Shown here in pieces: positions 1-15,152 of a stretch of 64,000 nt of DNA; position 1 is the stretch's first letter; every line of letters begins with the position of its first letter. Position numbers and translations under genes: made by a program. Location: contig JAKLDG010000001.1 in the NCBI GenBank assembly GCA_022703645.1, positions 274,814 to 338,813 of the forward strand, given 5' to 3'. The stretch comes from Patescibacteria group bacterium. GTDB taxonomy: Bacteria > Patescibacteriota > JACPGU01. The notes beneath the pieces are model-generated. The model had not been told where the DNA came from. It saw nothing but the letters and a program-made list of their open reading frames with translations, and did not search any database.

Positions 1-1033
1 TGTCCAGTTTATTCATAAATCCAAGTGAATGTGACGAGAATATTAATTGAGCCTTTTTATTTTTATCTTCATCAATAAAATAACCAATAAGTTTATTTAA
101 AGCTTCCGGATGAAAACCAGTTTCAAGCTCGTCAATAATAACAACATTATTATTTTTCAATGCACTTAGGATATTTGCCATTACAAAGAATAATGATTTA
201 GTGCCTCTCGATTCATATCCAAAATCCAGTTTGTTATTTTCTGTTTTAGTAGAGTGAACGCCTTGTACGGTTATAGAGAATCCCTTTTCTCTGACATCTT
301 CTTTGATTTCAAAACTATTTAACCCAATATCAAAATGGCGAATAAAATTTTCTACTTCTTTTTTTAGTTCAGAATCACTTAAATAAACCTTAAGTGCATC
401 AATTTGATGCATAACATGATTTATTTCGCCTCTTTCATTAATGTTGGTTTTAAATCCTAAGAAATAATCATAAACACTGTTTATGATATCAACGCTATAA
501 GTAGATTTCTTTATAAAGGCTATAAAAGAAACATCCTCTCTTATTTTTGGAAGAGCACTTATAGAAATATTCTTAAAATAATTTTCATTTAACGAATCTA
601 TAGTGCTTAATTGGCGCGAGAATATTTTTATTTTTTTTGAACCCGCTTGGATTGCTTTTATGTATAGGGATTCTTTTGTGATAATGTCTTTTTTTATTGA
701 GAAGTCATAAAAAAACACATTATTATTATGCTCGAATTCAACATAAAAATTTGATAACTTATCATTACCAAAAAAGGTTTTGAAGGCAATGCCTGGCATA
801 AGAGGGAATTCATCATTTATATTTCTGCATACAAAAAACTTTAGAAAACTAAAGAATCTCATGACATTTGTTTTACCCGATGCATTGCCACCAATAAAAC
901 CAGCAATCTTTGTTATTTGGTCGTCAGTCTTCGACTGATAATAGTCGTAAGTTTTTTTCTTTTTCGCTAGAAAACTAATTTCTTGCTCCTTGTTGAAGGA
1001 ATAAAAATTACTAAACTTTACCTTTCTTATCAT
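1..1033 (-). CDS. AAA-family ATPase (AAA_15/AAA_21-like), 3' end beyond window
   Basis: Minus-strand translation from ATG at 1031-1033 gives MIRKVKFSNFYSF...IGGNASGKTN (Walker A GxNxSGKT), later ...VIIDELETGFHPEA (Walker B-like DE plus HP). The reading frame stays open to the window edge. Confidence 0.5.
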   Translation of the reverse strand, partial: MIRKVKFSNFYSFNKEQEISFLAKKKKTYDYYQSKTDDQITKIAGFIGGNASGKTNVMRFFSFLKFFVCRNINDEFPLMPGIAFKTFFGNDKLSNFYVEFEHNNNVFFYDFSIKKDIITKESLYIKAIQAGSKKIKIFSRQLSTIDSLNENYFKNISISALPKIREDVSFIAFIKKSTYSVDIINSVYDYFLGFKTNINERGEINHVMHQIDALKVYLSDSELKKEVENFIRHFDIGLNSFEIKEDVREKGFSITVQGVHSTKTENNKLDFGYESRGTKSLFFVMANILSALKNNNVVIIDELETGFHPEALNKLIGYFIDEDKNKKAQLIFSSHSLGFMNKLD

Positions 1034-1119
1034 ATTTTTTGAGTTATTATTATTTCTCTAGCTAAGTATATCAGTGATTAAATAATAAGTCAAGTTAATA
1101 CAAAATATTGTATTAAGTC

Positions 1120-1480
1120 CTTAGATAGTCATTCATCTCACGGCTTTGCCGTGCCCCCTCTATAATATAAAAAATCAAATTCGTTTTCCCCTATATAAAA
1201 AAGCCTATCAATATTCCTTATTATAAGAAAAATATTTATTGAATTGCGTATAATGTCTCAGTATATCTGATGTTTCGCTCGATACCAAATTAGTTGAAAA
1301 TAGAAGAGCAGAAATATGGACGAACCCCGAGCCGAGGGGTGAGTCAGATATACTGTGTTAGGCGAGGGATTGATTTACTTACATTATTGAATATATATAA
1401 AAAGTAATCAAGAGCGCAGCGCCCCCTTGAGTTTCAAAAAACAAACTTCTCCTTTATTTAAGAGCTCTTTTGGGATTTTT
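1120..1480 (+). repeat. Modular island repeat, copy A (h1 hairpin 1126-1165; three-way-junction core 1250-1362; reversed AAGAGCTCTT module 1414-1480)
   Basis: Core has stem cagtatatctg/cagatatactg, CTGATGT junction, variable hairpin, AATATGG, a GAGCGA-like box and a GTGTTA tail. It is one of 10 copies. Confidence 0.85.
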
Positions 1481-1572
1481 ATTTTAATTGTTAAACAAGG
1501 ATTAATTTTACAGTTAATGTCAAATATGATAAAATGTGGAAAGAAAAAAAGAAAGGAGCGTGACCTTAACAA

Positions 1573-1958
1573 TGGATAATATGACAGCAGTTGTCTGGGC
1601 AAACAGAACGGAGAGAAGAATCTCCCAAAAAGACCTTCAGAAGATAATAAAGGATCATCTTCGCGAACTTGCGGATATGTATAACAAGTTCACGGACGCC
1701 AGTGATTTCACAAATAATGGCATGGATGTTATAGCCAAAGAAATCAGCGAACGCTTAAAAACCCTCATCGTAACAGGTGGCAACCAGATGGTGTCGGTTT
1801 CGGCGAGCGAAGATGATGTTTCAATAGCGCTCATAGAAATGAGCAAAGAAGGATTCTTCGAGGGCGGGCCGACCGGGTTTTTGGTGGTTGATGTGAAGGG
1901 AAGCCTTACGGAGTTCAAGCTGAAGACGGGAGTCAGAACGAAAACTCGATACGAATAA
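1573..1958 (+). CDS. Hypothetical protein (cassette 1; ~50% GC)
   Basis: ORF 1536..1958. An ATG at 1573 follows the RBS-like gaaaggagcg. GC is clearly higher than the flanks. It is followed by a terminator hairpin and T-run at about 1995-2025. Confidence 0.5.
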
Positions 1959-2017
1959 GTTTTCACACGCAATTCATTACACACAATGTCGAAGCTGGCC
2001 GCTGAGGTCGGCTTTTT

Positions 2018-2215
2018 TTCTTTCCCAAAAATCCCAAAAGAGCTCTAATTAAAATATAAAAAAGTTTGTTTTTGAAATTTCGCCTAATGTTTCGGTATAT
2101 CTGATGTCTAGGCTCGCTACCCAATTAAGTTGATGTAGGAAGAGCATAGATATGGGCGCAGGTTTGCGACTTAGCGAACCGTAGCCAGATATACCGTGTT
2201 ATGTGACGTCATGAA
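2018..2215 (+). repeat. Modular island repeat, copy B (forward AAGAGCTCT module 2018-2085; core 2085-2205)
   Basis: Core stem cggtatatctg/cagatataccg, CTGATGT, hairpin, GATATGG, GTGTTA. Confidence 0.85.
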
Positions 2216-2246
2216 AAATTCTTAATTCGACGATTTTAGTCGAATT

Positions 2247-2273
2247 TTAATCAGGGCAGATTTATTTTTTTAT
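2247..2273. repeat. Left 27-bp terminal inverted repeat flanking the cassette-2 methyltransferase gene
   Basis: ttaatcagggcagatttatttttttat is the exact reverse complement of 3058-3084. Confidence 0.9.
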
Positions 2274-3034
2274 TTCTTGGTTATTATGATTAAGTCGTCC
2301 TTAAAATCTAAGTAATTATTCCTTTGATGTTTTATGATGTTGGCTAAAAACTTCTTTACTTCTGTTGCAGTTGGGAGGGTGTTAGTGTTATGTATAAACC
2401 TATAGTAGTTCTTCAAATCAAAGTTTATTTTCCCGCTCAATATATCGCCCACATACATTCGCATTTTGTAGCGCTTTGTTTTTACAGAAAAGCCCTGTTT
2501 TTTATAAAAATCCGAAATATATTCCGAATAATTAAACTTTGGATACACTTGTTTTATAGCAATGTTATAGTGGTCACTTTCTTCAGGTAAGGTTAATATC
2601 AAAAGCTTACCTTTTTTCTTCAACAAGTCAGTCAGTTTTAACAACTGCTCTTGATAACTCTTTTCATCGGATGCCCAGTAATAATTCGTGTGAGAGGTAA
2701 AAATATAATCATATTTTTCATCGGTTTTTAGTTTGGATAGGGGTGCAGTGAATAGCTTTCCTATATTATTCTCGGGCGATAAAAATGTTTTCGCGTACGA
2801 CAGAGCTTTTTTGTTCGGTTCCAATAGATCGCATGAATAATCATACTCCAATCTGTCTAATATCTGTTTTGTAGTATGACCTTCGCCACATCCAATATCT
2901 AAAATCTTTCCACCTTTTATCTCTTTAACTATACCAAATACAATACCGAACCAGTCTTCGGTTAAGGCTCTGATATATATATTCTCATATACTTCTGCGA
3001 ATTGTTTTTCTCCCCAAAAATCCCATTTTGTCAT
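2270..3034 (-). CDS. Class I SAM-dependent methyltransferase (cassette 2)
   Basis: 254 aa with motif I ILDIGCGEGHTT. It is bounded by perfect 27-bp inverted repeats. Confidence 0.65.
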   Translation of the reverse strand: MTKWDFWGEKQFAEVYENIYIRALTEDWFGIVFGIVKEIKGGKILDIGCGEGHTTKQILDRLEYDYSCDLLEPNKKALSYAKTFLSPENNIGKLFTAPLSKLKTDEKYDYIFTSHTNYYWASDEKSYQEQLLKLTDLLKKKGKLLILTLPEESDHYNIAIKQVYPKFNYSEYISDFYKKQGFSVKTKRYKMRMYVGDILSGKINFDLKNYYRFIHNTNTLPTATEVKKFLANIIKHQRNNYLDFKDDLIIITKK

Positions 3035-3057
3035 AAATATATGTATTTTATTATATC

Positions 3058-3084
3058 ATAAAAAAATAAATCTGCCCTGATTAA
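3058..3084. repeat. Right 27-bp terminal inverted repeat (partner of 2247-2273)
   Basis: ataaaaaaataaatctgccctgattaa. Confidence 0.9.
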
Positions 3085-3109
3085 TTTTGCGTGAGCTACG
3101 CAAAAAAGA

Positions 3110-3441
3110 ATTTTTTATTATGTCACATAATGTCTCCGAGTATCTGATGTCTTTGATTTCCTTCAATATTACATTAAATATAAAAGGAAAGCAAAGATAT
3201 GGGTTGAGCGACGGCAGGAGCGAACCAGATACTCGGTGTTGGGCGACCCGAACGAGCTATTCACTTTATTAAATGTAAAAAGCGAGTGAGAGTGCAACGC
3301 GGTGCAAACGTCCATTTTCTTTTTCCTTTATTTATTGCTGGCTGTAACCACTCATAGTATTAGTAATTATAAGAAAATTTTGCTTCTCCATTTTTGGGCG
3401 AGGTCAGAGGGGATTCAGGGGTGAATGACCGAAGCCCAAAA
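3110..3441 (+). repeat. Modular island repeat, copy C (core 3125-3245; tail module; GGGG-loop hairpin 3392-3441)
   Basis: Core stem ccgagtatctg/cagatactcgg, a compensatory variant of copy A. The 3' module is ttttgggcgaggtcagaggggattcaggggtgaatgaccgaagcccaaaa. Confidence 0.85.
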
Positions 3442-3533
3442 TCATAAATGTTTTCAAAAAAATGTTATTTAAGGTATAATATTTGTTGAACAATAAGTTG
3501 TACCCTAAAAAACGAAAAAAGGAGGTGGTGGTT

Positions 3534-4403
3534 GTGATAAAGTTTTCCAATGGTCATGCCTTTGAATACATGACAGCAAGTGGTGCGTTGGGTTTCGACG
3601 GAAAAGGTTGGCCATGGGAAAAACCGTGGCACTGGCTCGGACTTTTTGACCCGACACTCTTTACTTCGGTAACCAAAACATTGACGCTTCAACCAAGGGA
3701 AGGAAATCTGCGGTGGTATAATCCGCTCCGATGTTTGCGGTTCGTCAGCGGTGGGGTCGTCAATGCAGTTGGTTTGTCAAATCATGGCGTTGATTGGTGG
3801 TGCAATAAGATTGGTCCATCAGTCACTTCCAAAAAAATTCCTTTGGTCGCTTCAATTTTTGGGGAACCAGAGGAATTAGTAGAAATGGCAAGAATGCTGG
3901 ACGGTTTTGACTTGGTCGGACTGGAAATCAATGCATCATGTCCGAACACTGAAACTTGCATTCTGCAAGATACTACGAGAGTAATTGCAAGTTGCGAAGC
4001 GGTCAAAACCAATTCACGCCTACCACTGATTCTGAAAGTATCAGTTACTCACGATGTTCCACGAATCACGAAAGAGGTCGAGGGTCTCATTGACGCAATT
4101 TCGATCAATAGCGTTCCTTGGTCAATGGCTTTTCCAAATCGCAGAAGCCCTCTCGAAAATCTCGGAAACGGTGGCGTATCAGGTAAAGTTGCCCAACCGT
4201 TCACGTGGGGCTTGGTCAAAAAAATTACCGAATTAACAAGTATTCCGGTAATCGGACCGAGCGTTTGGGACTTCGACGACCTCGAAAAAGTCAGAAATTT
4301 TGGTGCGAAGGCCGTCAGTTTTGGTTCTGTCTTTCTGTATCGTCCGTGGAGTCCGACGCTGTATGTTCGGAAAGAACAAAAATTCAAACGATTAAGGGTA
4401 TAG
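3534..4403 (+). CDS. Dihydroorotate dehydrogenase-family TIM-barrel flavoprotein (PyrD-like; cassette 3)
   Basis: NAVGLSNHGVDWW and LEINASCPN, the class-1 DHOD active-site Cys motif. The likely start is GTG at 3534 after GGAGGTG; the ORF track began at an upstream TTG. GC is about 47%. A terminator sits at 4404-4440. Confidence 0.55.
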   Translation: MIKFSNGHAFEYMTASGALGFDGKGWPWEKPWHWLGLFDPTLFTSVTKTLTLQPREGNLRWYNPLRCLRFVSGGVVNAVGLSNHGVDWWCNKIGPSVTSKKIPLVASIFGEPEELVEMARMLDGFDLVGLEINASCPNTETCILQDTTRVIASCEAVKTNSRLPLILKVSVTHDVPRITKEVEGLIDAISINSVPWSMAFPNRRSPLENLGNGGVSGKVAQPFTWGLVKKITELTSIPVIGPSVWDFDDLEKVRNFGAKAVSFGSVFLYRPWSPTLYVRKEQKFKRLRV

Positions 4404-4446
4404 TGGCACCCTGTCATAAATGACGAAGCCACTTTTTATTTTCCCC

Positions 4447-4834
4447 TTAAATAGTCCTTCATCTCACAGCTTTGCTGTGCCCCCTATAAATAAAATAAAA
4501 AAGCAAAATTTTCCCTTTGTTAGAAGAAAATAAATATTCAGTCATCACAAACCTTGCCAGCAAAATATAAGAAAAGAAAATGTATGTCGCCCAATGTTTC
4601 CGAGTATCTGATGTTGCTGATTATTTCTACCTTTATTTTATTATATAAAAGAAAAATCAGCAATATGGGTTGAGGGGCGAGCCGAGCCCCGAACCAGATA
4701 CTCGGTGTTAGGCGAGGGTTCATTTCCCCTTCATTATTAGATTAAATATAAAAGGGGGAATGAAAGCGCAGCGCCCCCTTGAGTTTCAAAAAACAAACGT
4801 CACCTCTATCTAAGAGCTCTTTTGGGATTTTTTG
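4447..4834 (+). repeat. Modular island repeat, copy D (h1 hairpin 4450-4493; core 4592-4712; reversed AAGAGCTCTT module 4766-4834)
   Basis: Core stem ccgagtatctg/cagatactcgg. Its internal hairpin is ttgctgattatttct...agaaaaatcagcaa. Confidence 0.85.
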
Positions 4835-4860
4835 GCTCTGGCGAATTGACCAAAAAAAGC

Positions 4861-4889
4861 TTGACAGAGCCACAAATATGTGATACAAT
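4861..4889 (+). promoter_or_regulatory. Sigma70-like promoter for cassette 4 (TTGACA-17-TACAAT)
   Basis: ttgacagagccacaaatatgtgatacaat lies upstream of an AAGGAGG RBS. Confidence 0.6.
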
Positions 4890-4939
4890 GATTATGTAAA
4901 AAATTTAATGCCCGAGTGGCATATAAGGAGGAAAGGACA

Positions 4940-5218
4940 TTGAAAACAAAGAAAGAGTTAATCGAAGAGAAAAGCGACGGTGTGTTCGGCGCTATGACAG
5001 GTCTGGTGCAGTTTGCTTCGCTGGTAAGTGATGAGGAATTCGCACTGCTGTGCGATAACATTCCCAGCGGCGAACATCTCTGGCTGGACTTCAAGAAGTA
5101 CCGCGACTCAAAGTTTGAAGGTTTCGGTATGTTGCACTATTTTCTTGGCAAGCTGGTAAAAGTCAAGCCAGAGATAGCCACGAAACTCGGGTTCGATCCC
5201 GAAACGGTTGCTCTTTAG
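4940..5218 (+). CDS. Hypothetical small protein (cassette 4; ~50% GC)
   Basis: ORF 4916..5218. TTG at 4940 is 7 nt after aaggaggaaagg. It is followed by a terminator. Confidence 0.4.
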   Translation: MKTKKELIEEKSDGVFGAMTGLVQFASLVSDEEFALLCDNIPSGEHLWLDFKKYRDSKFEGFGMLHYFLGKLVKVKPEIATKLGFDPETVAL

Positions 5219-5299
5219 TTCACACTGTACACGTCTGCGGTACAGCAATAAAACTCCGCGCTGAAATGTTCTTCGGAACAAATCGGCCACGGAGTTTTT

Positions 5300-5672
5300 T
5301 TCTTTCCCAAAAATCCCAAAAGAGCTCTAATTAAAATATAAAAAAGTTTGTTTTTTGAAATTTCGCCTAATGTTTCGGTATATCTGATGTTTCAGCTCGA
5401 TACCAAATTAGTTGATAAAAGAAGAGCAGAAATATGGACCGAGCGAGGGCACGAGCGAGTCAGATATACTGTGTTACCCGACCCGAGCATTTCTTTCATC
5501 TTTATTATATGTAAAAGAATGCGAGAGTGCAACGGGGCAAGCCCCCCCAAGGGCGCAGCGTGTATCTTTCGCTCATTGTTATTAGATTGAACACTTAAAA
5601 GAGATTCAAAACAGAATTATTCCATTTTTGGGCGAGGTCAGAGGGGCAGGGGTGAATGACCGAAGCCCAAAA
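5300..5672 (+). repeat. Modular island repeat, copy E (forward AAGAGCTCT module 5300-5368; core 5368-5478; tail; GGGG-loop hairpin 5626-5672)
   Basis: The most complete copy. The core is near-identical to copies G and H. Confidence 0.85.
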
Positions 5673-5685
5673 CCTTAAATGAATT

Positions 5686-6333
5686 TTATTTTTTCTGTCC
5701 GAAGTTAAGTTTGCGAATTACATTGAAATGCATACTTTCGTCAGGAACAATATAAACAAGACCATCGCATAAAAATTCTCCTGCGCTTGTTTTATCTTCC
5801 AATTCTTTCAATAAATCTGCGGTTTCTTCTTTCGAAATGAATTCTGCAATCGTCATGTGCGGGTTGAACGGAAATCTTCTTGGAACAGCTTCTGAAAATA
5901 ATGAAGCGCTTTCAATTTTTTCTCGTACTGCGTTTAGTTCGGTTTGATTTTCCAAAGGGAAAGCAACTCCTGGGTATGGTGGGTAATCCTTGGGTTTGCC
6001 ATAATTAATTTCGAAAGGTTTAATTTCAGAAGCAATGTTCTGCAATTCCTGCCAATCTTCTTCGGTTAATGGTTTGGGTACGGGCACCGAAATACTAATA
6101 TGTGTATCACAACTAGCCTGCGATTTAGGATCATACTTCGAGCGAAGGGAATTGACCAATGAAAGCACCGGTTCAGGCGGCATGATTAAAATGAGTCCAT
6201 AACGATATTCTTTTTCCCAATTTTCCCAATTATCAACATTTGAAACATATTCAGTAATCGGTTTATTTTTTTCAATTTGTTCATGCGCTGGGGTTGAATC
6301 GTTTTTATTCTCTGGCCAATTTTTTTCTGTCAT
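5686..6333 (-). CDS. 2H phosphoesterase (LigT/2',5'-RNA ligase-like; cassette 5)
   Basis: Two H-x-(T/S)-x motifs (CDTHISI and NPHMTI) about 80 aa apart. The N-terminus MTEKNWPE shares the MT..WP leader with cassettes 7 and 8. Confidence 0.55.
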   Translation of the reverse strand: MTEKNWPENKNDSTPAHEQIEKNKPITEYVSNVDNWENWEKEYRYGLILIMPPEPVLSLVNSLRSKYDPKSQASCDTHISISVPVPKPLTEEDWQELQNIASEIKPFEINYGKPKDYPPYPGVAFPLENQTELNAVREKIESASLFSEAVPRRFPFNPHMTIAEFISKEETADLLKELEDKTSAGEFLCDGLVYIVPDESMHFNVIRKLNFGQKK

Positions 6334-6344
6334 ATAATTATTTT

Positions 6345-6794
6345 TATTAATAAATAGTCCTTCAACTCGTAGCTTTGCTACGCCCCTCTTAAATATAAAA
6401 ATTCTGTTTTAATTTTGTTCAGGCTCAGCACAAACATTTAGAAACAAAAAAGAAAGATACATGTCTGGGTAATGTATGCGTATATCTGATGTTTTTGACT
6501 TGCTTCAATGTTAAATTAAATATAGAAAAAAGTCAAAAATATGGACGAGCGACAGCCGGAGCGAGTCAGATATACGCTGTTCTACGACCCGAAGCCCGAT
6601 ATTCAATATTTATTATATGTAAAATCGGGGTGAGAGTGCAACGCGGGCGTCAGCCGTACATTTTCTTTTTCATTATTATTTATTGCTGGCTGTAACCACT
6701 CAGAGTATTAGTTATTAAATGAAAATTTTGCTTCTCCATTTTTTGGGCGAAGGTCAGAGGGGAATTAAAGGGGTGAATGACCTGAGCCCAAAAT
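6345..6794 (+). repeat. Modular island repeat, copy F (h1 variant hairpin 6352-6388; core 6470-6585; tail; GGGG-loop hairpin 6741-6794)
   Basis: h1 is ctcgtagctttgctacg, a compensatory variant of cacggctttgccgtg. Core stem is gcgtatatctg/cagatatacgc. Confidence 0.85.
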
Positions 6795-6876
6795 CCCTTA
6801 ATGAATTTTGGACAAAAAAATATGCCCGGATTACCGCCGGGCGCGGGATCGTTTACAGAACGGAGAGCACAAGGTT

Positions 6877-7203
6877 TCATTTGTGCTCTTGATCAAAAAA
6901 ATCTTCGAAGTCTTTCAGGGTTTTGCGAAGCTTGGATTTTTTTGGTAAGGACTTTTTGCCGTGGGTTTCAATCTCGATTCTCACCGGAACTTCAAATCCT
7001 TTGGTTTTTTCCGTGAAAAACATCGTCCCACTTGTGCCGACAACATCAGCATCCACTTCTCTCAAGAAATCTCTGTTAAATAAAATGGGATGTCTTTTGC
7101 CTTTTGCATCTCCGAGAGAAACTCTGACACTGTGGGGGAGGACTTCGATAACAAGAAAGGGATATCCCTTTTGTTCTTCTGTGCTGAGGGCAGTTTTTTT
7201 CAT
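6877..7203 (-). CDS. Hypothetical protein, 108 aa (cassette 6)
   Basis: ORF only. I could not support a family assignment. Confidence 0.35.
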   Translation of the reverse strand: MKKTALSTEEQKGYPFLVIEVLPHSVRVSLGDAKGKRHPILFNRDFLREVDADVVGTSGTMFFTEKTKGFEVPVRIEIETHGKKSLPKKSKLRKTLKDFEDFFDQEHK

Positions 7204-7317
7204 AATTCAGATTCCTCGCTTCCTTTGGTTTTTTTGATATGTTAAGGTATTTCAATAATACCACAAATGTTTGGATTTGTCAATGGCTTTTTGGCACAAC
7301 AGAGCTAAAAAACCAAA

Positions 7318-7752
7318 TTAAATAGTCCTTCATCTCACGGCTTTGCCGTGCCCCCTCTATAATCAAATAAAAAAGCAAAATTTTCCCTTTGTTAGAAAAG
7401 AATAAATATTCAGTCATCACAAACCTTGCCAGCAAAATATAAGAAAAGAAAATGTATGTCGTAGAATGTCTCAGTATATCTGATGTTTCGCTCGATACCA
7501 AATTAGTTGATAAAAGAAGAGCAGAAATATGGACCGAGCGAGGGCACGAGCGAGTCAGATATACTGTGTTACCCGACCCGAGCATTTCTTTCATCTTTAT
7601 TATATGTAAAAGAATGCGAGAGTGCAACGGGGCGAAGCGTGTATCTTTCTGACTATTGATATTAGAATTAACACTTAAAAGAGAACAAAACAGAATTATT
7701 CCATTTTTGGGCGAGGTCAGAGGGGCAGGGGTGAATGACCGAAGCCCAAAAC
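7318..7752 (+). repeat. Modular island repeat, copy G (h1 hairpin 7322-7366; core 7465-7575; tail; GGGG-loop hairpin 7704-7752)
   Basis: The X-type upstream module is near-identical to 4447-4600. The core is near-identical to copy E. Confidence 0.85.
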
Positions 7753-7753
7753 C

Positions 7754-8602
7754 TTATTTAAAATATTGTGGCACCATCCCTACTTCGGCTAATTTGTTAC
7801 ATTCTATTTCCCACGATTCTTTTTCTTTTTTTGCCATTTCTAAACCCTCCCATAAATCGCTTTTAGAATCTGTGTACAAAAAATTTCTATAAATATTCGA
7901 AAAGGTTGTATGGCGAAAAGATTTTTCTCCATAGGCAACATCTCCTTGATTATCTAAAAATATTTTTTCAATATTATCAACCATCGCGTTCAAACAATGC
8001 AAGAATTCTTGTAGAAAATAAAAAGCATTTCCCATTTTGATTCTTAACTTTTGTTGATAGTCATCAAAATATTCCGGATTAAATGGTCTTGATAGAAATT
8101 GAAAGCAATCCTCCACGCCTTTTGCATCATTTGCAATTCTATCGTAAATTTTTTTTCTAAAATTCGCATCTGATTCATTCTTGGGATCACGATTTTTATC
8201 AATTATTAAAATCGCATCATTAATAATTGGTTCAACATTTTTAACAAAGTAATTTTTAGCCTCGCGCCACTTACCTTCTAATTCTTCTCTTAGTTTTGGA
8301 AATTCCGTTACTTTTATAAATCTAATGTCTTTAGAAGGGGATATGTTAAAGGTAGGATTCTTTATTATAACATCTATTGGTGGAAGCATCCTTGTTAATT
8401 CGTCAATCTTTTCACCTATTTTCTCATCACTAAATTCATTTTTATATTTTTCTAAAAATTTTTCTATATTTTTTATGGTTTTCTCTATAAATTCACTTTT
8501 TTCTGCTCTTTTTTCGACCACATTAATATTATCAACTTTGGGTTGTTCTTCTTTTAGTGGGTTAGTGTTGTCGCCTGTCGGCCATTTTATTGGATCTGTC
8601 AT
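7754..8602 (-). CDS. Hypothetical protein (cassette 7) with the shared MTDPIKWP N-terminal leader
   Basis: ORF 7754..8635 from an upstream TTG inside the repeat module. The ATG at 8602 gives MTDPIKWPTGDNTNP, followed by a Pro/Glu/Lys-rich region. Confidence 0.45.
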   Translation of the reverse strand: MTDPIKWPTGDNTNPLKEEQPKVDNINVVEKRAEKSEFIEKTIKNIEKFLEKYKNEFSDEKIGEKIDELTRMLPPIDVIIKNPTFNISPSKDIRFIKVTEFPKLREELEGKWREAKNYFVKNVEPIINDAILIIDKNRDPKNESDANFRKKIYDRIANDAKGVEDCFQFLSRPFNPEYFDDYQQKLRIKMGNAFYFLQEFLHCLNAMVDNIEKIFLDNQGDVAYGEKSFRHTTFSNIYRNFLYTDSKSDLWEGLEMAKKEKESWEIECNKLAEVGMVPQYFK

Positions 8603-8619
8603 AAGTTTATTTTTTATTA

Positions 8620-9044
8620 ATAAATAGTCCTTCAACTCGTAGCTTTGCTACGCCCCTTTTAAATATAAGAATTCTGTTTTGATTTTATTCAGGTTCAGCA
8701 TAAACATTTAGAAGAAAAAAAGAAAGATACATGTCTGGGTAATGTTTCAGTATATCTGATGTTTCAGCTCGCCACCTTATTCACTTGATAGAGAAAGAGC
8801 AGAAATATGGACCGAGCGAGGGCACGAGCGAGTCAGATATACTGTGTTACCCGACCCGAGCCCTGATACCTTATTTATTATATGCAAAGAAGGGCGAGAG
8901 TGCAACGGGGCAAGCCCCTCAAGGGCGAAGCGTGTATCTTTCTGTTCATTGTTATTAGATTTAATACTTAGAAGAGATTCAAAACAGAATTATTCAATTT
9001 TTGGGCGAGGTCAGAGGGGCAGGGGTGAATGACTGAAGCCCAAA
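8620..9044 (+). repeat. Modular island repeat, copy H (h1 variant 8624-8662; core 8740-8852; tail; GGGG-loop hairpin 8997-9044)
   Basis: Same architecture as copy F and copy E. Confidence 0.85.
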
Positions 9045-9055
9045 ACCTTGATAAT

Positions 9056-9931
9056 TTAATCCTTCTTTTTTGTAAATAAATGCACTGCATTTGGACCAGC
9101 AACACCAAAAATACCTTCATGATGTGTTTTATAACCAGATAGATCAAGAGATTGATGAAGTATAATGCATCCTTCTGGGCTTAGTACTCTATCAATTTCT
9201 TTATTTATAGCCTTAACATATTCTGGGTCTGCATCGTGCATTACACAATCGTCTATACCTGAAGCGTAAATACTAACCGAGTCATCAGGAAGTCTTCTTA
9301 AAAAGGAAAGCATATCTTCATCAGCTACTGAGGCAGGAATCCCGTGAAAATATTCTATCTTCCCTTGTGTATAGTTGCTATTCGTATTGATCAGTTCTGA
9401 TAGTGAGTTCTTTAATTCTGATTTACTTTTGTCTAATGTCTCACTAAGTTGGGAAGAGAAAAATTTATCTACACCGACATATGATTTTGCTCCCAATATG
9501 TCAAGGATGTAGTACGCATCTCTACCGCTCATACCGGCTCCTAGGTCAATTACTATTTGGTTTTTGAGATGTTCCAGCGTAGTCGCAAAGGTTGTGTTTT
9601 GTTCGTTTACTCCTGCATTACGATTTTTAAATTTTTCAATAAGCTCTCCCTCTGTCAAATCCGGATTTGCATTTTTTAAATTAACAAAAAATTTCAAAGG
9701 ATTAATCATCCATCTGAATGCACTATCAGAAAAAGATTGTGGAAGATCGTATCCAGTTTTTTTAAATTCTTTACCAATATCAGTGTTCTGTTCTTTTTCT
9801 TTGATTCCGGGAACTAGCTCTTCAACTGGTCTTAAAATACTTTCTTCTGATTCTTTTTCTACAGTGTTTTCAACTTCAATTTTTGGCTTAGGTGGTTCTG
9901 TATTTGGGTTTGGCCATTTTGGGTCTGTCAT
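9056..9931 (-). CDS. Class I SAM-dependent methyltransferase-like protein (cassette 8) with the shared MTDPKWP leader
   Basis: VIDLGAGMSGRDAYYIL is a motif-I-like sequence. The ATG at 9931 gives MTDPKWPNPNTEPP; the ORF track started at an upstream TTG inside the repeat. Confidence 0.5.
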   Translation of the reverse strand: MTDPKWPNPNTEPPKPKIEVENTVEKESEESILRPVEELVPGIKEKEQNTDIGKEFKKTGYDLPQSFSDSAFRWMINPLKFFVNLKNANPDLTEGELIEKFKNRNAGVNEQNTTFATTLEHLKNQIVIDLGAGMSGRDAYYILDILGAKSYVGVDKFFSSQLSETLDKSKSELKNSLSELINTNSNYTQGKIEYFHGIPASVADEDMLSFLRRLPDDSVSIYASGIDDCVMHDADPEYVKAINKEIDRVLSPEGCIILHQSLDLSGYKTHHEGIFGVAGPNAVHLFTKKKD

Positions 9932-9944
9932 AGATTTATTTTTT

Positions 9945-10310
9945 ACTATTAAATAGTCCTTCAACTCGTAGCTTTGCTACGCCCCTCTTAAATATAAAGA
10001 ATTCTGTTTTGAATTTCGTTAAGCTCAGTACAAGCGTTTAGAAGTAAAAAAGAAAGATACATGTTGGGTAATGTCTCATAGTATCTGATGTTGCTGATTA
10101 TTTCTACCTTGATTATATTATACAGAAGAAAAATCAGCAATATGGGTTGAGGGGCGAGCCGAGCCCCGAACCAGATACTATGTGTTAGGCGAGGGTTCAT
10201 TTCCCCTTCATTATTAGATTAAATATAAAAAGGAAATGAAAGCGCAGCGCCCCCTTGAGTTTCAAAAAACAAACTTCACCTCTATTTAAGAGCTCTTTTG
10301 GGATTTTTTG
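9945..10310 (+). repeat. Modular island repeat, copy I (h1 variant 9948-9986; core 10070-10190; reversed AAGAGCTCTT module 10240-10310)
   Basis: Core stem catagtatctg/cagatactatg, another compensatory variant. Confidence 0.85.
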
Positions 10311-10318
10311 GCTACCTA

Positions 10319-10347
10319 TTGACATTTTTTGGGAAATATGATAAGAT
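10319..10347 (+). promoter_or_regulatory. Sigma70-like promoter for cassette 9 (TTGACA-17-TAAGAT)
   Basis: ttgacattttttgggaaatatgataagat upstream of an aaaggag RBS. Confidence 0.5.
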
Positions 10348-10397
10348 TAATTATCGGTTTTTGCGGATATATAATCCAATAGAAAGGAGTAAAATCG

Positions 10398-10790
10398 ATG
10401 ATCTTTAAGAACTTACAATTGGAAACAGGCGACTTTGTTGCGTTTCAAACAGAGGCTGTTCCGCTTCCGGAAGTTCAGGCGGCTGTCATCGGTATTGAGG
10501 ATGGCGTACTCGAAGTCATGAGTACCTTGCTCGCACCATTCCAGCACAACGGGAAATTTACAGAAGACGAGGTAGGCCAAATCATGGTCGTCTATCCATC
10601 AGCGATTGCCATTCCTCGGGAGTCTCGAGGCAAAAACTTCTCTAAACACCAAGGTGTATCCGTCATCATCAAGGGCGGAGAGGAACATCGGGGTGAAGTT
10701 GTTGCTGCGTTCGACGGTATCGTCGTGGCACGCAGAAGCGATGGTGAGCTGATCACCGGCGGAGCTTCGCATTTCAATGCTGTTGCCTAA
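10398..10790 (+). CDS. Hypothetical protein, 130 aa (cassette 9; ~50% GC)
   Basis: ATG with RBS. GC is well above the flanks. A terminator follows at about 10815-10846. Confidence 0.5.
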   Translation: MIFKNLQLETGDFVAFQTEAVPLPEVQAAVIGIEDGVLEVMSTLLAPFQHNGKFTEDEVGQIMVVYPSAIAIPRESRGKNFSKHQGVSVIIKGGEEHRGEVVAAFDGIVVARRSDGELITGGASHFNAVA

Positions 10791-10842
10791 GAATCGACAG
10801 CAAGTCCTGCTAATTGAGCGCACGACCTACGGGTACGGCGCT

Positions 10843-11135
10843 TTTTTCTTCCCTAAAAATCCCAAAAGAGCTCTAATTAAAATATAAAAAAGTTTGTTTT
10901 TTGAAATTTCGCCTAACGTTTCGGCATATCTGATGTTTGCCGTAGCGTAGCGAAGGCAAATATGGGTGGAGGCTTTTGTATAAAAGCCGTAACCAGATAT
11001 GCCGTGTTATGTGATGTGCATGTTTTACTTTAATCCTGATAGCAATCGGGATTGCTCTAAAAAAGAATTTTAATTTTGTTTTTTTGTTTTGGATTTTGGG
11101 CAGAGGGGTTAGGGGTGAATGCCCAAAATCCAAAA
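10843..11135 (+). repeat. Modular island repeat, copy J (forward AAGAGCTCT module 10843-10918; core 10915-11012; GGGG-loop hairpin 11089-11129)
   Basis: Core stem cggcatatctg/cagatatgccg. The perfect hairpin is ggattttgggc-agaggggttaggggtgaa-tgcccaaaatcc. Confidence 0.85.
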
Positions 11136-11139
11136 CTCC

Positions 11140-11547
11140 TTATTCTGCTAATAATTTAAACACTAAGCTAAATATTTTTGGTGAAAAATCTTTATAAATT
11201 AACTCTCTCGTCTCGTCCTCACCAAATGACCAAAATTTACCATTAATTTCTAAACCAGTAGGATAATGACTCTCGTGAAATAATTTATTTCTTATTTCTC
11301 TTAAAGATTCTAAAAATTTAAGTTCCGCGTCATCAATTAAATCCTTTTCTTTAGCTTCTGTAATTATTCTATGAAAATTGCCGTCAATTTTATTGACAGA
11401 AAATTTTATAATCTGTTCTGACAAAACAAATAGACAAGCAAGCGCAGAAAAGTAATTTTCTTGTTCATAAGAATTTTGTGCCTCGAAACATAATTTCCCA
11501 AAAATATGGTCTCTTTCATTTATTTTTGCAATTATATCGGTATTCAT
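11140..11547 (-). CDS. Hypothetical protein, 135 aa, co-oriented with and abutting the C5-methyltransferase gene
   Basis: ORF only. Its stop is 2 nt from the methyltransferase start. Confidence 0.4.
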   Translation of the reverse strand: MNTDIIAKINERDHIFGKLCFEAQNSYEQENYFSALACLFVLSEQIIKFSVNKIDGNFHRIITEAKEKDLIDDAELKFLESLREIRNKLFHESHYPTGLEINGKFWSFGEDETRELIYKDFSPKIFSLVFKLLAE

Positions 11548-11549
11548 GT

Positions 11550-12527
11550 TTATTTCAAATCAGCCATTATTTTTTTTGCTAAATGGTGGGCAAAATTTAC
11601 TGCGACAGCATTTCCAATCATTTTATATCCGTCGGCAATATCACGATATTTAAAAATAAAATTATCAGGGAATGTTTGAATCCTTGCACATTCACGAACA
11701 GACAAGCGACGATATAAATGTTCTTTTCCGGGAACAAAAATTCTTTTATTTTGACTGATAAATTTCATTTTCGGAGCTTGGGGATGAATTGGAGCATGGC
11801 GACCACCGGCTTGAATGGTAAAAGAAGGTTCATCCCATGAGCGAACACGATTTCGCGACATATAAATTGAAGAAAAACCGCCATTCATGTATTCGTGATT
11901 TGGAATTTTTAACACATCGCCATTTGTCTTATTTTTATCTAACGCAGGTTTTGCTAAACGCAAATCATAAATAGCGTCTTTCAATACTGGTTTATATTTT
12001 TGCGGTTCTGGAAATTCAAATTTTTTCTTTAGTTTTTTATTATATCCAACAATAATGACACGCAATCTATCTTCAGGAACATCATAATCATTTGCATTTA
12101 ATAATTTGCAGGAAATTTCATATCCAGCATTTTCAAATTCTTTTATTATATTTGAAAAAGCCTCTTTGTGTTTAGGGTGAAGAATACCCGATACATTTTC
12201 TGCAAGAAAAAATTTTGGTTGTTTTTCCTTTAATAAACGAATGTAATCATAAAATAATTTTCCTCTTTTATCATTTATTCCACGTCCAGCCCCAGCCTCG
12301 CTCCAACTTTGACAAGGTGGTCCGCCAATGATTCCGTCAACATCGGGAATTTCAGAAGCAGGGACGTCGACAATACTTCTTTTATCAAGTTTTGTTTTTG
12401 GAAAATTGTGTTCAAAAGTTTCCCAAATTGTGGGGTCATATTCATTTGCCCAGACGACATGAAAACCAGCTTTTTCAAAGCCTAAATCAAGTCCTCCTGC
12501 ACCTGTAAACAATGAAGCTATTTTCAT
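11550..12527 (-). CDS. DNA (cytosine-5)-methyltransferase
   Basis: Motif I FTGAGGLDLGF, motif IV GGPPCQSWS, ENV. Confidence 0.9.
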   Translation of the reverse strand: MKIASLFTGAGGLDLGFEKAGFHVVWANEYDPTIWETFEHNFPKTKLDKRSIVDVPASEIPDVDGIIGGPPCQSWSEAGAGRGINDKRGKLFYDYIRLLKEKQPKFFLAENVSGILHPKHKEAFSNIIKEFENAGYEISCKLLNANDYDVPEDRLRVIIVGYNKKLKKKFEFPEPQKYKPVLKDAIYDLRLAKPALDKNKTNGDVLKIPNHEYMNGGFSSIYMSRNRVRSWDEPSFTIQAGGRHAPIHPQAPKMKFISQNKRIFVPGKEHLYRRLSVRECARIQTFPDNFIFKYRDIADGYKMIGNAVAVNFAHHLAKKIMADLK

Positions 12528-12529
12528 AA

Positions 12530-13534
12530 TTATTCGTGACTAATATTTAGTGTGTTTTTAAATAATTTTTTCGGCGATTTCAAAAGATTTATATCAAATT
12601 TCAAAGACGATTCAACCCTAGAACTTGCATTATGAATACGAAAAGAAAGAGTCCAATCATTATTCATGGTTACTATTGCCGTTGTTTGGCTATCGGTTTT
12701 GAAACAAATATCAACAATTTCTGTTGGCAATGGAACTTTTGGTGTTTTGTATTTTGGAAGAATGTCGTTAAAAGGCAAATTTAATGTTCCATTCAAATTG
12801 TATGCGTGTATTTCTACACTATTTTTGCCTTTAATAACTTTGTAAAAATCTTTATTTCCAACGAGGTATGCAACTAGATTAGACGCTACTTTTTTAGAAT
12901 CTTTTTTGTATAGATTTTTCAGTTCTTTAATAAAGGCTTTTAAAATTGGAATATAGATTGATGAATGATAATCACCAAGCTCACTCCACTTTTTCTTTGC
13001 ACCGCTTTCTTTTCTAATTTTCTCTAAATTGTTAAAAATAGGTGTTACTGTTTCAAAATATTCTTTTGATGTTTTTATTCCAAGCCACTTTTCACCAAAA
13101 TCAATATTTGAAGATAGTCGGGAATGCTTTACTGCATGATGATTGTTTTTGGCCGATACTCCAATTTCCCATTTTTGCAACAAACGAATTGCTAAAACAT
13201 CTCTAACATCGCCTGATTTTCCATGTTGATCGGATAAAATTTCAAGTTGCAGAATATCATCTTTACCAACATCATTTGTGAGGCGTGGCTCTATATCCAT
13301 TAGAAAATTAACCGCAAAACTAGCGGTGAGTAAATAATCACTTTTTTCTGTTTCGCTCACATTTTCAAAACATCCTTTTGCAATTTCAAAAGAAGAATTT
13401 TTGATAACTTCAAGATTTGTTTTATCTTTCAATTTTTCTTCAAATTGAACAAGTAAAGCATATTCAAAAGATTTTCCAGTTGTCATTTGTCTTGATGCAG
13501 TAGTAGTCATATTTTTATTATTACATTTTTCCAT
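12530..13534 (-). CDS. Putative cognate Type II restriction endonuclease
   Basis: 334-aa ORF directly upstream of and co-oriented with the C5-methyltransferase gene. I recognise no motif, so the call rests on context only. Confidence 0.35.
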   Translation of the reverse strand: MEKCNNKNMTTTASRQMTTGKSFEYALLVQFEEKLKDKTNLEVIKNSSFEIAKGCFENVSETEKSDYLLTASFAVNFLMDIEPRLTNDVGKDDILQLEILSDQHGKSGDVRDVLAIRLLQKWEIGVSAKNNHHAVKHSRLSSNIDFGEKWLGIKTSKEYFETVTPIFNNLEKIRKESGAKKKWSELGDYHSSIYIPILKAFIKELKNLYKKDSKKVASNLVAYLVGNKDFYKVIKGKNSVEIHAYNLNGTLNLPFNDILPKYKTPKVPLPTEIVDICFKTDSQTTAIVTMNNDWTLSFRIHNASSRVESSLKFDINLLKSPKKLFKNTLNISHE

Positions 13535-13662
13535 TTAAAAATAAATCGTTTTCGTAGCGGAGCGGAGAAAACACCTTATACCCCTTTCTAATTAATAAAA
13601 AACAAAATTTAAATTCTTTTTTAGAGCTGGGCGATAGCCCAAAAGTAAAACATGCATTTCAC

Positions 13663-13709
13663 ATAACTCGTTTTTATCTGAATATATTTCAGATAAAAAC
13701 GAGTTACGG
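13663..13709. promoter_or_regulatory. Perfect 19-bp-arm palindrome in the divergent region between the REase and recombinase genes
   Basis: taactcgtttttatctgaa-tatat-ttcagataaaaacgagtta. It contains the ATCTGA/TCAGAT boxes also present in the repeat cores. Confidence 0.5.
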
Positions 13710-13783
13710 TAGTTTATGCGGTTATTGTGTACATTCTTCAACATCTTTGATATTATCGATTTAATATTATCATTTTTTATTAT

Positions 13784-14605
13784 ATGCAACAATACTTAGA
13801 TAGATTGTCGCAGGAATTACGATTAAGAAATTATAGTAACAGCACGGTCGAAAGTTACCTGACGTGCGTGAAATATTATTTTTATTTTGTGGAAAGAAAT
13901 GGCGCAAGAATTGAAGATGGTGATCAGGATATTCTCAAATCATTTCTTCTTGATAAACATAACAAAGGGTCCTCATCACAAACGATCAATCTTTATCTCA
14001 ATGCGATAAAGTTTTTTTATCGGGAAATCATGAAATCACCACAAAGTATCGATATTAGATTTGCCAAGAAATCAAATAAGCTGCCGGTAGTCCTCTCGCA
14101 TGATGAGATTGAAAGAATTATTGAAGTAACAAAAAATTCAAAGCATCGGCTCATTATTTCGCTGAGCTATGGCGCAGGGTTGAGAGTGAGCGAAATCATA
14201 AGTTTAAAAGTTAAAGACTTGGATTTGGATAGCTTAACGATTCACCTAAAAAATGCGAAGGGGAAAAAGGACAGAATTACGGTTTTGCCGGTAAAATTAG
14301 TTAATTCTTTGCGCAATGCGGTTGCGGGCAAGGATATTGATGATCTGGTTTTTGAAAGCGAGAGAGGCGGGGGATTGACCGATCGGACTGCACAGGTCAT
14401 TTTCAACAATGGGTTGAGGAGAGCGGGAATCAAAAAAGAAGCGACATTCCACTCGCTTCGCCATTCGTTCGCTACACATCTGCTTGAAAACGGTACAGAC
14501 ATTCGTTACATTCAAGAATTGCTTGGACATCAAAATATTCGAACGACTCAAATTTATACAAAAGTGACAAACCCGGCGGTACGCAATATAAAAAGCCCGC
14601 TGTAA
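13784..14605 (+). CDS. Tyrosine site-specific recombinase (XerC/D-like phage-integrase family)
   Basis: AGLRVSE (catalytic Arg), HSLRHSFATHLL (H-x-x-R), LGHQNIRTTQIYTKV (nucleophilic Tyr). At 273 aa it is shorter than classical IntI. Confidence 0.85.
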   Translation: MQQYLDRLSQELRLRNYSNSTVESYLTCVKYYFYFVERNGARIEDGDQDILKSFLLDKHNKGSSSQTINLYLNAIKFFYREIMKSPQSIDIRFAKKSNKLPVVLSHDEIERIIEVTKNSKHRLIISLSYGAGLRVSEIISLKVKDLDLDSLTIHLKNAKGKKDRITVLPVKLVNSLRNAVAGKDIDDLVFESERGGGLTDRTAQVIFNNGLRRAGIKKEATFHSLRHSFATHLLENGTDIRYIQELLGHQNIRTTQIYTKVTNPAVRNIKSPL

Positions 14606-14624: not shown

Positions 14625-15152
14625 ATGCAAAACGAAAATAAAAATAGAAAATCAATCCGTTTAAAAGAATATGATTATTCTGAACCAGGAGATTATTTTG
14701 TTACAATTTGCACACAGAATCGAGAATGTTTGTTTGGGGAGATTGTAGACGGTAAGATGATTTTAAATGAAATGGGATTAATAGTTAATGATTGTTGGAA
14801 TGATTTAGAAAATCATTACCCGGGAATTTATTTGGATATATTTACAATCATGCCGAACCATATTCATTTTATATTAACAATATTGTGCGATGATCATATT
14901 GTAGGGGCGGGTTTGAAACCCGCCCCTACGGGGAAGCGATATCAATTGTTCGAGATAATTCGTGGGTTCAAAACATTCTCTGCAAGAAAAATAAATAAAA
15001 TGAAAAATACATCTGGTAATCCTGTTTGGCAACGCAACTATTACGAACACATCGTTCGCAACGAACAATCTTACGATGAAATTTATTCTTACATAGAGTC
15101 TAATTCTCAAACCTGGGATCGGGATAGGAATAATCCAAAAAATATGATATAA
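14625..15152 (+). CDS. IS200/IS605-family HUH transposase-like protein (RAYT/TnpA-REP-like)
   Basis: 175 aa with an HUH motif in IMPNHIHFIL. It contains an in-frame REP-like palindrome at 14901-14929. Confidence 0.65.
   Translation: MQNENKNRKSIRLKEYDYSEPGDYFVTICTQNRECLFGEIVDGKMILNEMGLIVNDCWNDLENHYPGIYLDIFTIMPNHIHFILTILCDDHIVGAGLKPAPTGKRYQLFEIIRGFKTFSARKINKMKNTSGNPVWQRNYYEHIVRNEQSYDEIYSYIESNSQTWDRDRNNPKNMI
14901..14929. repeat. REP-like palindrome GTAGGGGCGGGTTTGAAACCCGCCCCTAC inside the transposase ORF
   Basis: Perfect 13-bp arms. The same GTAGGGGCG head occurs at three operon-end hairpins. Confidence 0.7.

Follow-up and report, generated by a model that had tools for sequence, protein, structure and literature searches.

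What does a perfect inverted repeat around a single bacterial gene signify? The question is raised by a stretch of DNA of 64,000 nucleotides (nt), hereafter called the window, from the metagenome-assembled genome (MAG, ~867 kb) of a Patescibacteria group bacterium (GenBank assembly GCA_022703645.1, contig JAKLDG010000001.1, positions 274,814 to 338,813 of the forward strand). Near the left end of the window, a gene for a methyltransferase dependent on S-adenosylmethionine (SAM) is enclosed by two exactly complementary arms of 27 nt, and the original prediction for this locus had been a recent, non-autonomous mobile unit of 838 bp, extending from arm to arm. We favor another reading, to which we assign a probability of roughly 0.6, i.e., that the arms are the innermost part of a terminal inverted repeat of ~75 bp, which frames the cargo in one family of integron-like cassettes of the Patescibacteria. 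The frame is conserved in sequence and pairing around unrelated cargo, it is polar, and it is continuous with a recombination box. The array of cassettes to which it belongs shows an integron-type crossover signature and adjoins a gene for a tyrosine recombinase resembling IntI and Xer.

A repeat search of the window returned the two arms (2247-2273 and 3058-3084) as predicted, with complementarity at 27 of 27 positions and a separation of 784 nt. When up to three mismatches were allowed, the 27-mer was found only twice in the 64 kb, as these two arms, with zero occurrences expected from 100 shuffles. The symmetry of the cassette ends is much larger than that, amounting to 75 nt per end as compared to 27 nt for the arms alone. 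It starts at a pair of complementary boxes, TTATGTGAC and GTCACATAA, continues inward through a 16-nt A/T tract, is interrupted by two non-homologous hairpins, and ends in the 27-mer. Boxes and tracts together (2199-2223 and 3106-3130) constitute an imperfect inverted repeat of 88%, of which the left and right outer parts co-vary from cassette to cassette. Alignment of the complete ends, 2199-2273 and 3058-3130, gave a score of 65, the highest score after shuffling being 28. Hairpin A, with a stem of 8 bp and a loop of 7 nt, adjoins the left arm; it is the 23-bp palindrome that had been proposed to abut this arm at 2225-2247, and which is real but located at 2224-2246 and not perfect. Hairpin B, its counterpart at the right end, and the outer inverted repeat were not part of the original prediction. 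Both hairpins scored as outward-facing terminators with an identical AAGAATTTTT tail (five terminator-like sites were found versus 0.9 expected). On the gene strand, the left arm contains stop codons in all three frames. The right arm and the adjacent promoter-like motif TGATATAAT recur as 35 identical nt in another genome (locus L033); a simple promoter scan, which demands a -35 element, did not list this motif.

Read on the gene strand, the 5' half of the cassette thus ordered comprises the R-box remainder TTATGTGAC, an A/T tract, hairpin B, an arm, the -10-like motif and the methyltransferase open reading frame (ORF), whilst the 3' half comprises the second arm with the stop codon of the ORF, hairpin A, an A/T tract and the complementary R box. 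The cassette then ends with the L stem and the variable loop of an attC-like site. Contigs from five other samples contain the locus with 100% identity, each with both arms. At the gathering thresholds of Rfam, the window had no match, and the region 1100-3500 had none at E<=1 either; a tRNA search of the window found none, and a 20-mer core of the arm was not found in viral contigs. The coordinates of all elements are listed in Table 1, where, as below, a slash within a sequence marks a crossover or junction point.

Table 1. Elements of the methyltransferase cassette, its two flanking sites and the recombinase end of the array (positions in the window).
Feature	Position	Strand	Description
attC-like site at the methyltransferase 3' end	2080..2207	+	Left box TCGCCTAAT (2080-2088), spacer (2089-2093); L stem, GGTATATCTG (2094-2103) pairs with CAGATATACC (2186-2195); spacer GTG; right box G/TTATGTGAC (2198-2207)
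R-box remainder	2199..2207		TTATGTGAC; left end of the cassette; exact reverse complement of 3122-3130
Left outer inverted repeat	2208..2223		GTCATGAAAAATTCTT; read on the minus strand, the T-rich tail of hairpin A
Hairpin A	2224..2246	-	AATTCGAC-gatttta-GTCGAATT; terminator-like, downstream of the methyltransferase gene
Left 27-nt arm	2247..2273		Includes the methyltransferase stop codon (2270-2272)
Methyltransferase gene (cargo)	2270..3034	-	Intact class I SAM-dependent methyltransferase, 254 aa
Extended -10 promoter-like motif	3050..3058	-	TGATATAAT; directly after the right arm, 15 nt before the ATG; read by eye, putative function
Right 27-nt arm	3058..3084		From the repeat search
Hairpin B	3085..3105	+	TTTTGCGT-gagct-ACGCAAAA; terminator-like, pointing out of the cassette, adjoining the right arm
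Right outer inverted repeat	3106..3121		AAGAATTTTTTATTAT
attC-like site on the methyltransferase 5' side	3122..3247	+	Left box GTCACATAAT (3122-3131); L stem, CGAGTATCTG (3137-3146) pairs with CAGATACTCG (3226-3235); right box G/TTGGGCGAC (3238-3247)
Terminal site of the array	13660..13709		CACATAAC, then TCGTTTTTATCTGAA-tatat-TTCAGATAAAAACGA, then GTTACGG
Tyrosine recombinase gene	13784..14605	+	273 aa; resembles IntI and XerA, without the IntI-specific insert

The methyltransferase gene is the sole credible ORF between the arms, and no transposase is encoded by the ORFs of the segment, both in agreement with the original prediction. Its product matches Methyltransf_25/31/12/23/11 above the Pfam cut-offs and is full length in comparison with >100 homologues. 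The nearest of these, at 70-78% identity, are encoded by ordinary chromosomal genes among core genes of bacteria of the candidate phyla radiation (CPR) or of DPANN archaea, and the flanks of these genes contain no inverted repeat above chance. For example, homologues of 70-71% identity (L006, 3805-4569; L007, 3662-4426; L009) have archaeal core genes (SBDS, exosome subunits, Rpb6) or bacterial RelA as neighbors. The gene family is thus common to DPANN archaea and CPR bacteria, and the methyltransferase of the cassette may be a cross-domain acquisition. A role of the cargo in defense was also considered, but PADLOC gives only a generic match to a methyltransferase domain (mad2, 55 bits), from which no conclusion was drawn.

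That the arms belong to a larger structure is also seen in other genomes. Metagenome and genome collections were scanned with the arm core, which revealed the same frame in ~13 other loci (L015/18/20/46, L017, L019/22/32, L023, L027, L029, L033, L039, and L043), in MAGs labeled Peregrinibacteria, Peribacteria, Microgenomates, and Patescibacteria. Two further labels, Gammaproteobacteria and Woesearchaeota, may be binning errors. The locus with the latter label (L039, 6511-6582; CAYXYT010000024.1, Woesearchaeota archaeon) has the frame from L box and R box through hairpin A to the arm, and represents either a binning error or a cassette family that crosses domains. Other matches to the arm core were devoid of the frame and were taken as chance matches; those in two contigs of one cyanobacterial MAG (L035 and L038) were taken as chance or shared-gene matches. 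The module conserved in ~13 loci is TTAATCAGGGCAGATTTATT(TTTTTAT), next to the same hairpin and R box. In every genuine match, the arm directly follows hairpin A, the A/T tract, the R box, and an attC-like L box, and hairpin A was never seen without the arm among the loci examined.

Within this frame, eight unrelated cargo sets are found, with proteins of 76 to 463 aa and two genes in two of the sets. The direction of the cargo is constant in every locus examined, i.e., from the hairpin-B side to the hairpin-A side, and the stop codon of the cargo lies within the 3' (left) arm, at positions 16-26, in each of the 12 loci in which this arm is readable. The A-run of the arm encodes the terminal lysines of many cargo proteins. 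Pairing is kept where sequences differ: hairpin A is preserved in other genomes by compensatory changes (GAC/GTC to GCC/GGC), and the stems of hairpin B vary with maintenance of pairing (GCGT/ACGC, GCTC/GAGC, and GTGC/GCAC). Moreover, the two ends of one cassette co-vary at positions 5 and 6 of the R box and at position 16 of the outer repeat. The arms are perfect elsewhere as well, with 24 of 24 positions in L023, and several loci contain the full 27-mer on one side. Since the same arms enclose eight unrelated cargo sets, their perfection reflects conservation of a module rather than a recent event, as had been supposed. The alternative that the 27-mer is a common motif, flanking unrelated genes without forming pairs, is half correct: it flanks many unrelated genes, but it does so in pairs.

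Conservation of this kind may alternatively indicate that arms and hairpins are expression parts only, i.e., a promoter or operator on one side and a stop-codon trap with terminator on the other, arranged as mirrored two-way insulators without any role in recombination. Several of the properties described above fit such an explanation: the terminator-like, outward-facing hairpins, the TGATATAAT motif after the right arm of both the window and L033, the three-frame stops in the left arm with the cargo stop always inside it, and an arm core that is conserved in sequence and not merely in pairing. Still, a promoter side and a terminator side would not be expected to share 20-27 identical inverted bases, and the complementarity is continuous with the R box, which itself co-varies between the ends. 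Other frame types in the array (see below) differ in sequence, but keep the inverted layout. We regard the expression-only explanation as unlikely.

The R box connects the frame to a larger system. As predicted, the cassette is located between two copies of a structured repeat (~2080-2207 and 3122-3247). These are two of at least 15 attC-like sites, all in one orientation, which extend from 7.3 kb left of the window start, as seen via contig L011, to position 11015. The array as a whole occupies positions 1-13709 of the window plus 7.7 kb leftward (L011, 13035-20765) and contains ~16 cassettes. Each site consists of a left box RYYYAAT, a 5-nt spacer, a stem half of 10-11 bp, a variable middle, the second stem half, a 3-nt spacer, and a right box GTTxxxx. 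In an alignment of 15 copies, the L stem, of 11 bp, shows compensatory double changes in five pairs and no broken pair, and a second stem of 7 bp likewise co-varies. For integrons, the consensus core sites are GTTRRRY and RYYYAAC. Here, the right box begins with GTT in all 15 sites, whilst the left box ends with AAT in 14 of them and with AAC in one; it also ends with AAC in the related loci L015, L017, and L023. The L stems are perfectly paired, without extrahelical bases, and their sole asymmetry resides in the spacers, of 5 and 3 nt, respectively.

An integron-type crossover signature was found in 15 of 15 cassettes: the box at one end of a cassette is matched, in reverse complement, by the bases after G/TT at its other end. 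It was by this pattern that the crossover point of integron cassettes was defined. The bases after G/TT vary between neighboring cassettes, with six different sequences (TTATAC, TTAGGC, TTATGT, TTGGGC, TTACCC, and TTCTAC). According to the crossover points, the methyltransferase cassette measures ~1.04 kb and runs from 2199 to 3238 or, in the opposite polarity, from 2088 to 3130, and this whole cassette, rather than the 838-bp segment between the arms, is the unit. What stands of the proposed mobile element is a single-gene unit without transposase, with its ends marked by the arms, in the context of mobile cassettes; the notion of a recent, non-autonomous unit from arm to arm does not. Inverted repeats at the ends are not confined to the methyltransferase cassette. 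Other cassettes have the same inverted plan with different sequences, and in 11 of 15 cassettes the repeat scored strictly above its own shuffle maximum, the weakest of the 11 being marginal (30 versus 28). The remaining four were tied with or below their shuffle maximum, for example 3239-4594 (33 versus 33), 5474-6472 (26 versus 31), and 7569-8742 (27 versus 28).

Three frame types recur in the array: TTAGGCGA.., TTATGTGA.. and TT(G/A)(G/C)(G/C)CGAC.., the last of these with modules A and B. In cassettes of the TTAGGCGA type, the genes are on the plus strand, and hence opposite in direction to those of methyltransferase-type cassettes; they have a near-consensus promoter of their own (TTGACA-17-TACAAT, 4862-4890) and a clear terminator (5250-5300). 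The cassette nearest to the recombinase gene (11007-13666) encodes, on the minus strand, a HaeIII-like restriction endonuclease, a C5 cytosine methylase, and a 135-aa ORF product. It has an inverted-repeat frame of ~75 nt with an internal hairpin, in a repeat-hairpin-repeat layout. The polarity of the array is not fixed by the R-box rule, because this rule is symmetric. The lengths of the spacers favor the plus orientation, whereas cargo direction, the position of the recombinase gene, and the terminal site favor minus; we lean to the latter, which means that each gene is followed by its own site. A different order of cassettes may exist in one population: the contig L014 matches window positions 5385-5544 with its first 160 nt (1-160), leaves the reference after 5544, and continues into a module that is also seen at -7197 and -2599. 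It is ambiguous whether this represents a true variant or an assembly path, which it may be because the shared repeat (~150 nt) exceeds the k-mer of the assembler. Five other contigs (L004, L013, L050, L051, and L052) end inside such arrays.

Next to the array, the recombinase gene is transcribed away from the cassettes, with the terminal site of the array located ~78 bp upstream of its start codon. This site contains a perfect 15-5-15 palindrome (13668-13702), has the sequence TATCTGA in common with the L boxes, and is, on sequence grounds, a candidate attI- or dif-like site. In NCBIfam, the best match of the recombinase is the integron integrase family TIGR02249, with 223 bits in two stretches, which is below the cut-off of 265, and archaeal XerA follows close behind. 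Likewise, its best match in the Protein Data Bank (PDB) is VchIntIA (2a3v), with 165 bits as compared to 141 bits for XerA. Residues 183-246 of VchIntIA align to only 21 residues of the recombinase, ~43 residues of the integrase-specific region being skipped. Of the two tryptophans of 2a3v that stack on the extrahelical bases, W157 has a Leu as its equivalent here and W219 falls in the missing segment. An additional, IntI-specific domain near patch III marks integron integrases (Messier and Roy 2001, cited in PMC9668308).

The family of this recombinase is ubiquitous in Patescibacteria, with >7,800 matches at ~65% identity, and several of its members have a similar context. A full-length recombinase that is 53% identical is encoded beside the same cassette type in L015, and in L050, a 71%-identical recombinase has an analogous 15-5-15 palindrome upstream. 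Junctions similar to the terminal site are found in L015 and L047-L050. Upstream of the homologous recombinases in L047-L050, there are runs of small minus-strand genes, and the conserved sequence turns variable at AAC/TCGTT or at a palindrome. In L048, an attC-like site follows the same box rule. In L047-L049, the junction is located ~110-140 nt before the start codon of the recombinase and reads ..AAC/TCGTT(T/A)(C/T)TATACGAA. Two direct repeats, TATACGAAyTkAATGTATAAT, come after it and recall the integrase-binding sites of attI1, which are direct repeats as well. The homologous recombinase in L048 is encoded 6 kb from dnaA, and the platform may be situated near the replication origin. An ORF of 452 aa in the window (16736-18094) was considered as DnaA and rejected, as it encodes a radical SAM protein.

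The recombinase is likely the enzyme that moves the cassette, and the frame could serve it as follows. When the DNA is single-stranded, i.e., during replication or in an excised circle, the two ends of the cassette would zip together, the arms forming a base stem of 27 bp and the outer repeats a stem of 16 bp, with hairpins A and B at a four-way junction between the two and a paired R box beside the L stem. The product would be a very long attC-type site, presenting a fully paired R box to the recombinase, which the crossover point would split into parts of 75 nt and ~180 nt when the cassette sits in the array. In calculations with DNA parameters, the reconstituted circular junction folds as a single rod of -79 kcal/mol, composed, from base to tip, of the 27-bp base stem, the four-way junction with both hairpins, the 16-bp stem, the R box, the spacer, and the L stem. 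The junction expected in such a circle is CCAGATACTCGGTG/TTATGTGACGTC or, in the other polarity, CGCCTAA joined to T-GTCTCCGAG, and movement of the whole cassette at the R box would leave the empty site CCAGATATACCGTG/TTGGGCGACCC. In the duplex form, the hairpins with their T tracts would function as terminators that insulate the cassette, because both score as facing outward. The downstream arm would ensure that translation stops in three frames, and the upstream arm would be located beside the promoter of the cargo.

Several observations weigh against the frame reading. Neither a circle nor an empty site was observed; the five strain contigs carry the cassette in place, and the variant L014 is ambiguous. 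Since the IntI-specific domain is missing from the recombinase and extrahelical bases from the L stems, the single-strand chemistry of attC sites cannot be taken for granted. The 20-nt core of the arm is nearly invariant, so that a protein-binding site or an expression signal, rather than pairing, may be what has conserved it. Covariation within the frame is confined to its outer part, with three columns in four cassettes. A strand bias of wobble pairs is absent across the array (31 against 42). Within the frame family, all transitions give G·T on the plus strand, but these represent only ~4-5 independent events and were not used as evidence. Finally, the recombinase family is ubiquitous in Patescibacteria, and the enzyme may be a housekeeping Xer that acts on duplex sites.

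This last point can be extended to an explanation of the entire array as an Xer-type system, in which cassettes are exchanged at duplex sites, as dif modules or as units resembling integrative mobile elements exploiting Xer (IMEX), and in which the inverted ends are inversely oriented binding sites. In line with such a system, the recombinase belongs to a very large, conserved family without the I2 insert and scores nearly as well against XerA; the 15-5-15 palindrome upstream of its gene resembles a classical core site and shares TATCTGA with the L boxes; and the pdif modules of plasmids are bounded by inverted sites (PMC6449649). However, a duplex site of the 11-6-11 type is not present at the cassette boundaries, and the conserved stems with compensatory changes point to folded strands. 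Moreover, the distance of 6 kb from dnaA in L048 and the position of the window locus at a low of the cumulative GC skew do not fit the terminus, where dif is expected. We consider the Xer-type explanation improbable, to about the same degree as the expression-only one. As regards the enzyme, it is nevertheless to be taken seriously, whereas it leaves the 27-mer as part of the cassette frame unaffected.

Less probable still is the explanation nearest to the original prediction, i.e., an 838-bp non-autonomous transposon, resembling a miniature inverted-repeat transposable element (MITE) with a passenger gene, that recently inserted between two hairpins, perhaps at TTAA. Its terminal inverted repeats (TIRs) would be the perfect arms (27/27), the absence of a transposase would match its non-autonomous nature, TTAA is present at both outer ends and could be a target-site duplication, and a RAYT-like gene (RAYT, repetitive extragenic palindrome-associated tyrosine transposase) is found 11.5 kb away. 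This TTAA is the only candidate for a duplication, but it merely extends the repeat, because it is palindromic, and the bases outside it, GAATT and TTTTG, are not direct repeats. A search for further copies of the 27-mer yielded a single pair in the window and a single locus per genome with a genuine match. All genuine matches are embedded in a frame of hairpin A or B and R box, directly beside an attC-like L box, and the same arms surround eight unrelated cargo sets. The viral contigs yielded no match, and Y1 and RAYT enzymes act on hairpins, not on TIRs. The last possibility, an invertible switch by which the recombinase would flip the 784-bp segment and turn the methyltransferase on or off, may be all but dismissed: a perfect inverted repeat does surround the whole gene with a tyrosine recombinase in the neighborhood, but all six contigs of this population show the segment in one orientation, every related cassette has its cargo in the same polarity with respect to the two hairpins, and flipping would not uncouple the promoter-like motif from the gene, because the motif lies inside the segment.

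How, then, does the framed cassette compare with known systems? Chromosomal integrons, such as that of Vibrio cholerae with its integrase VchIntIA, are the closest. They too consist of mostly single-gene units between imperfect palindromes of ~110-130 nt with R box, spacer, L box, and variable loop, and show the crossover signature, in that a cassette begins with a match to the inverse core of its own site. In both, a recombinase, here one that is closest to VchIntIA, is encoded at one end of the array and transcribed away from it, with a special site adjoining; ORFs are tightly packed, with the stop codon within the region of the recombination site; and the sites within one host are similar. 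In contrast to chromosomal integrons, the recombinase described here lacks the IntI-specific insert including the I2 helix, the L stems contain no extrahelical bases, and the left box mostly ends with ..AAT instead of ..AAC. In addition, the complementarity reaches ~65 nt past the R box, both before and after the ORF, with two hairpins embedded in it, whereas the 5' end of a canonical cassette comprises 6 nt of the site. The array works like a chromosomal integron but lacks two of its defining features, the IntI-specific domain and the extrahelical bases, nor do described cassettes have a long terminal inverted repeat flanking the ORF. In the literature on integrons and attC sites in Patescibacteria, CPR, and Parcubacteria, which was covered incompletely, no description of such arrays was found, and this is weak evidence for novelty.

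The pdif/dif modules of Acinetobacter plasmids are similar in that they are devoid of a transposase, have inversely oriented sites, are presumably mobilized by an Xer-type enzyme, and are shared between replicons (PMC6449649). Their sites, however, are 28-bp duplexes consisting of XerC site, spacer, and XerD site, whereas the boundaries described here are boxes of 9-10 bp continuous with long, covarying stems, and the only palindrome resembling a core site is the one in the terminal site (13668-13702). MITEs and passenger-carrying TIR elements share with the methyltransferase cassette the perfect terminal inverted repeats, the short segment, and the absence of a transposase; the cassette differs from them by the lack of dispersed copies in the window and in the genomes scanned, of an unambiguous target duplication, and of a cognate autonomous element, and by arms that are always within the frame. 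In IMEX of the CTX-phage type, folded single-stranded DNA mimics a dif site for XerCD. Similarities to these elements are a site formed by pairing of inverted segments of one strand, an Xer-like enzyme, and tandem accumulation at one chromosomal site, but they are phage genomes that integrate at the dif site of the terminus, whereas the array consists of single-gene cassettes without phage genes.

The surroundings of the array have some further features. The RAYT-like gene mentioned above (14625-15152) encodes an IS200-like Y1 protein (52.7 bits, cut-off 80) and is located between the recombinase gene and obg; since the recombinase gene directly precedes obg in L050, its presence here is explained by an insertion or, there, by a loss. 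AT-rich intergenic inverted pairs, AATTTTCAATTTT.. facing ..AATTGAAAATT, are found at 28513-28622, 30732-30848, 35999-36107, 38607-38722, 39783-39894, and 60375-60405, one of them directly after rpoC. These pairs could be terminators or, in the manner of repetitive extragenic palindromes, partners of the RAYT-like protein. Between 42693 and 54908, A-rich motifs with a period of ~8 nt, AAACAATAAATCAA.., are repeated upstream of several genes. The cumulative GC skew is low and roughly flat at 9001-14000 (0.01-0.25), with a local low at ~13-14 kb (0.04), and rises steadily afterwards; right of the array, nearly all genes are on the plus strand.

On its own, the 27-mer is a modest detail, and its value lies in exposing a reusable cassette frame. 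This frame bears on an open question, i.e., how an ORF becomes joined to a host-specific recombination site in integron cassettes. Here, a conserved sequence specific for the host group flanks the ORF on both sides, within a few bases, and even supplies its stop codon. The presence of the same frame around eight cargo sets, together with methyltransferase relatives that are not framed, suggests that the palindromic frame existed first and that ORFs were slotted into it; insertion at a palindromic target, which had been proposed for the present cassette, may be how cargo first entered the frame. Arrays of this type break assemblies, and standard integron finders that require a canonical IntI probably miss them. 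More tentatively, and with odds that we consider to be against it, Patescibacteria might capture genes in an integron-like manner by an IntI/Xer-like recombinase without I2 helix, maybe their own Xer, with bare ORFs being slotted into reusable palindromic frames of ~75 bp that supply terminators, three-frame stops, and a long attC-type stem, and with some of the ORF families being shared with DPANN archaea. The combination of attC-like sites without extrahelical bases and a recombinase without the domain that reads them is relevant to the evolution of IntI from Xer (PMC4792948, PMC7790495). If it truly exists, such a platform for gene capture would offer a visible record of cassette making, and it could represent an intermediate between the Xer/dif and IntI/attC systems.

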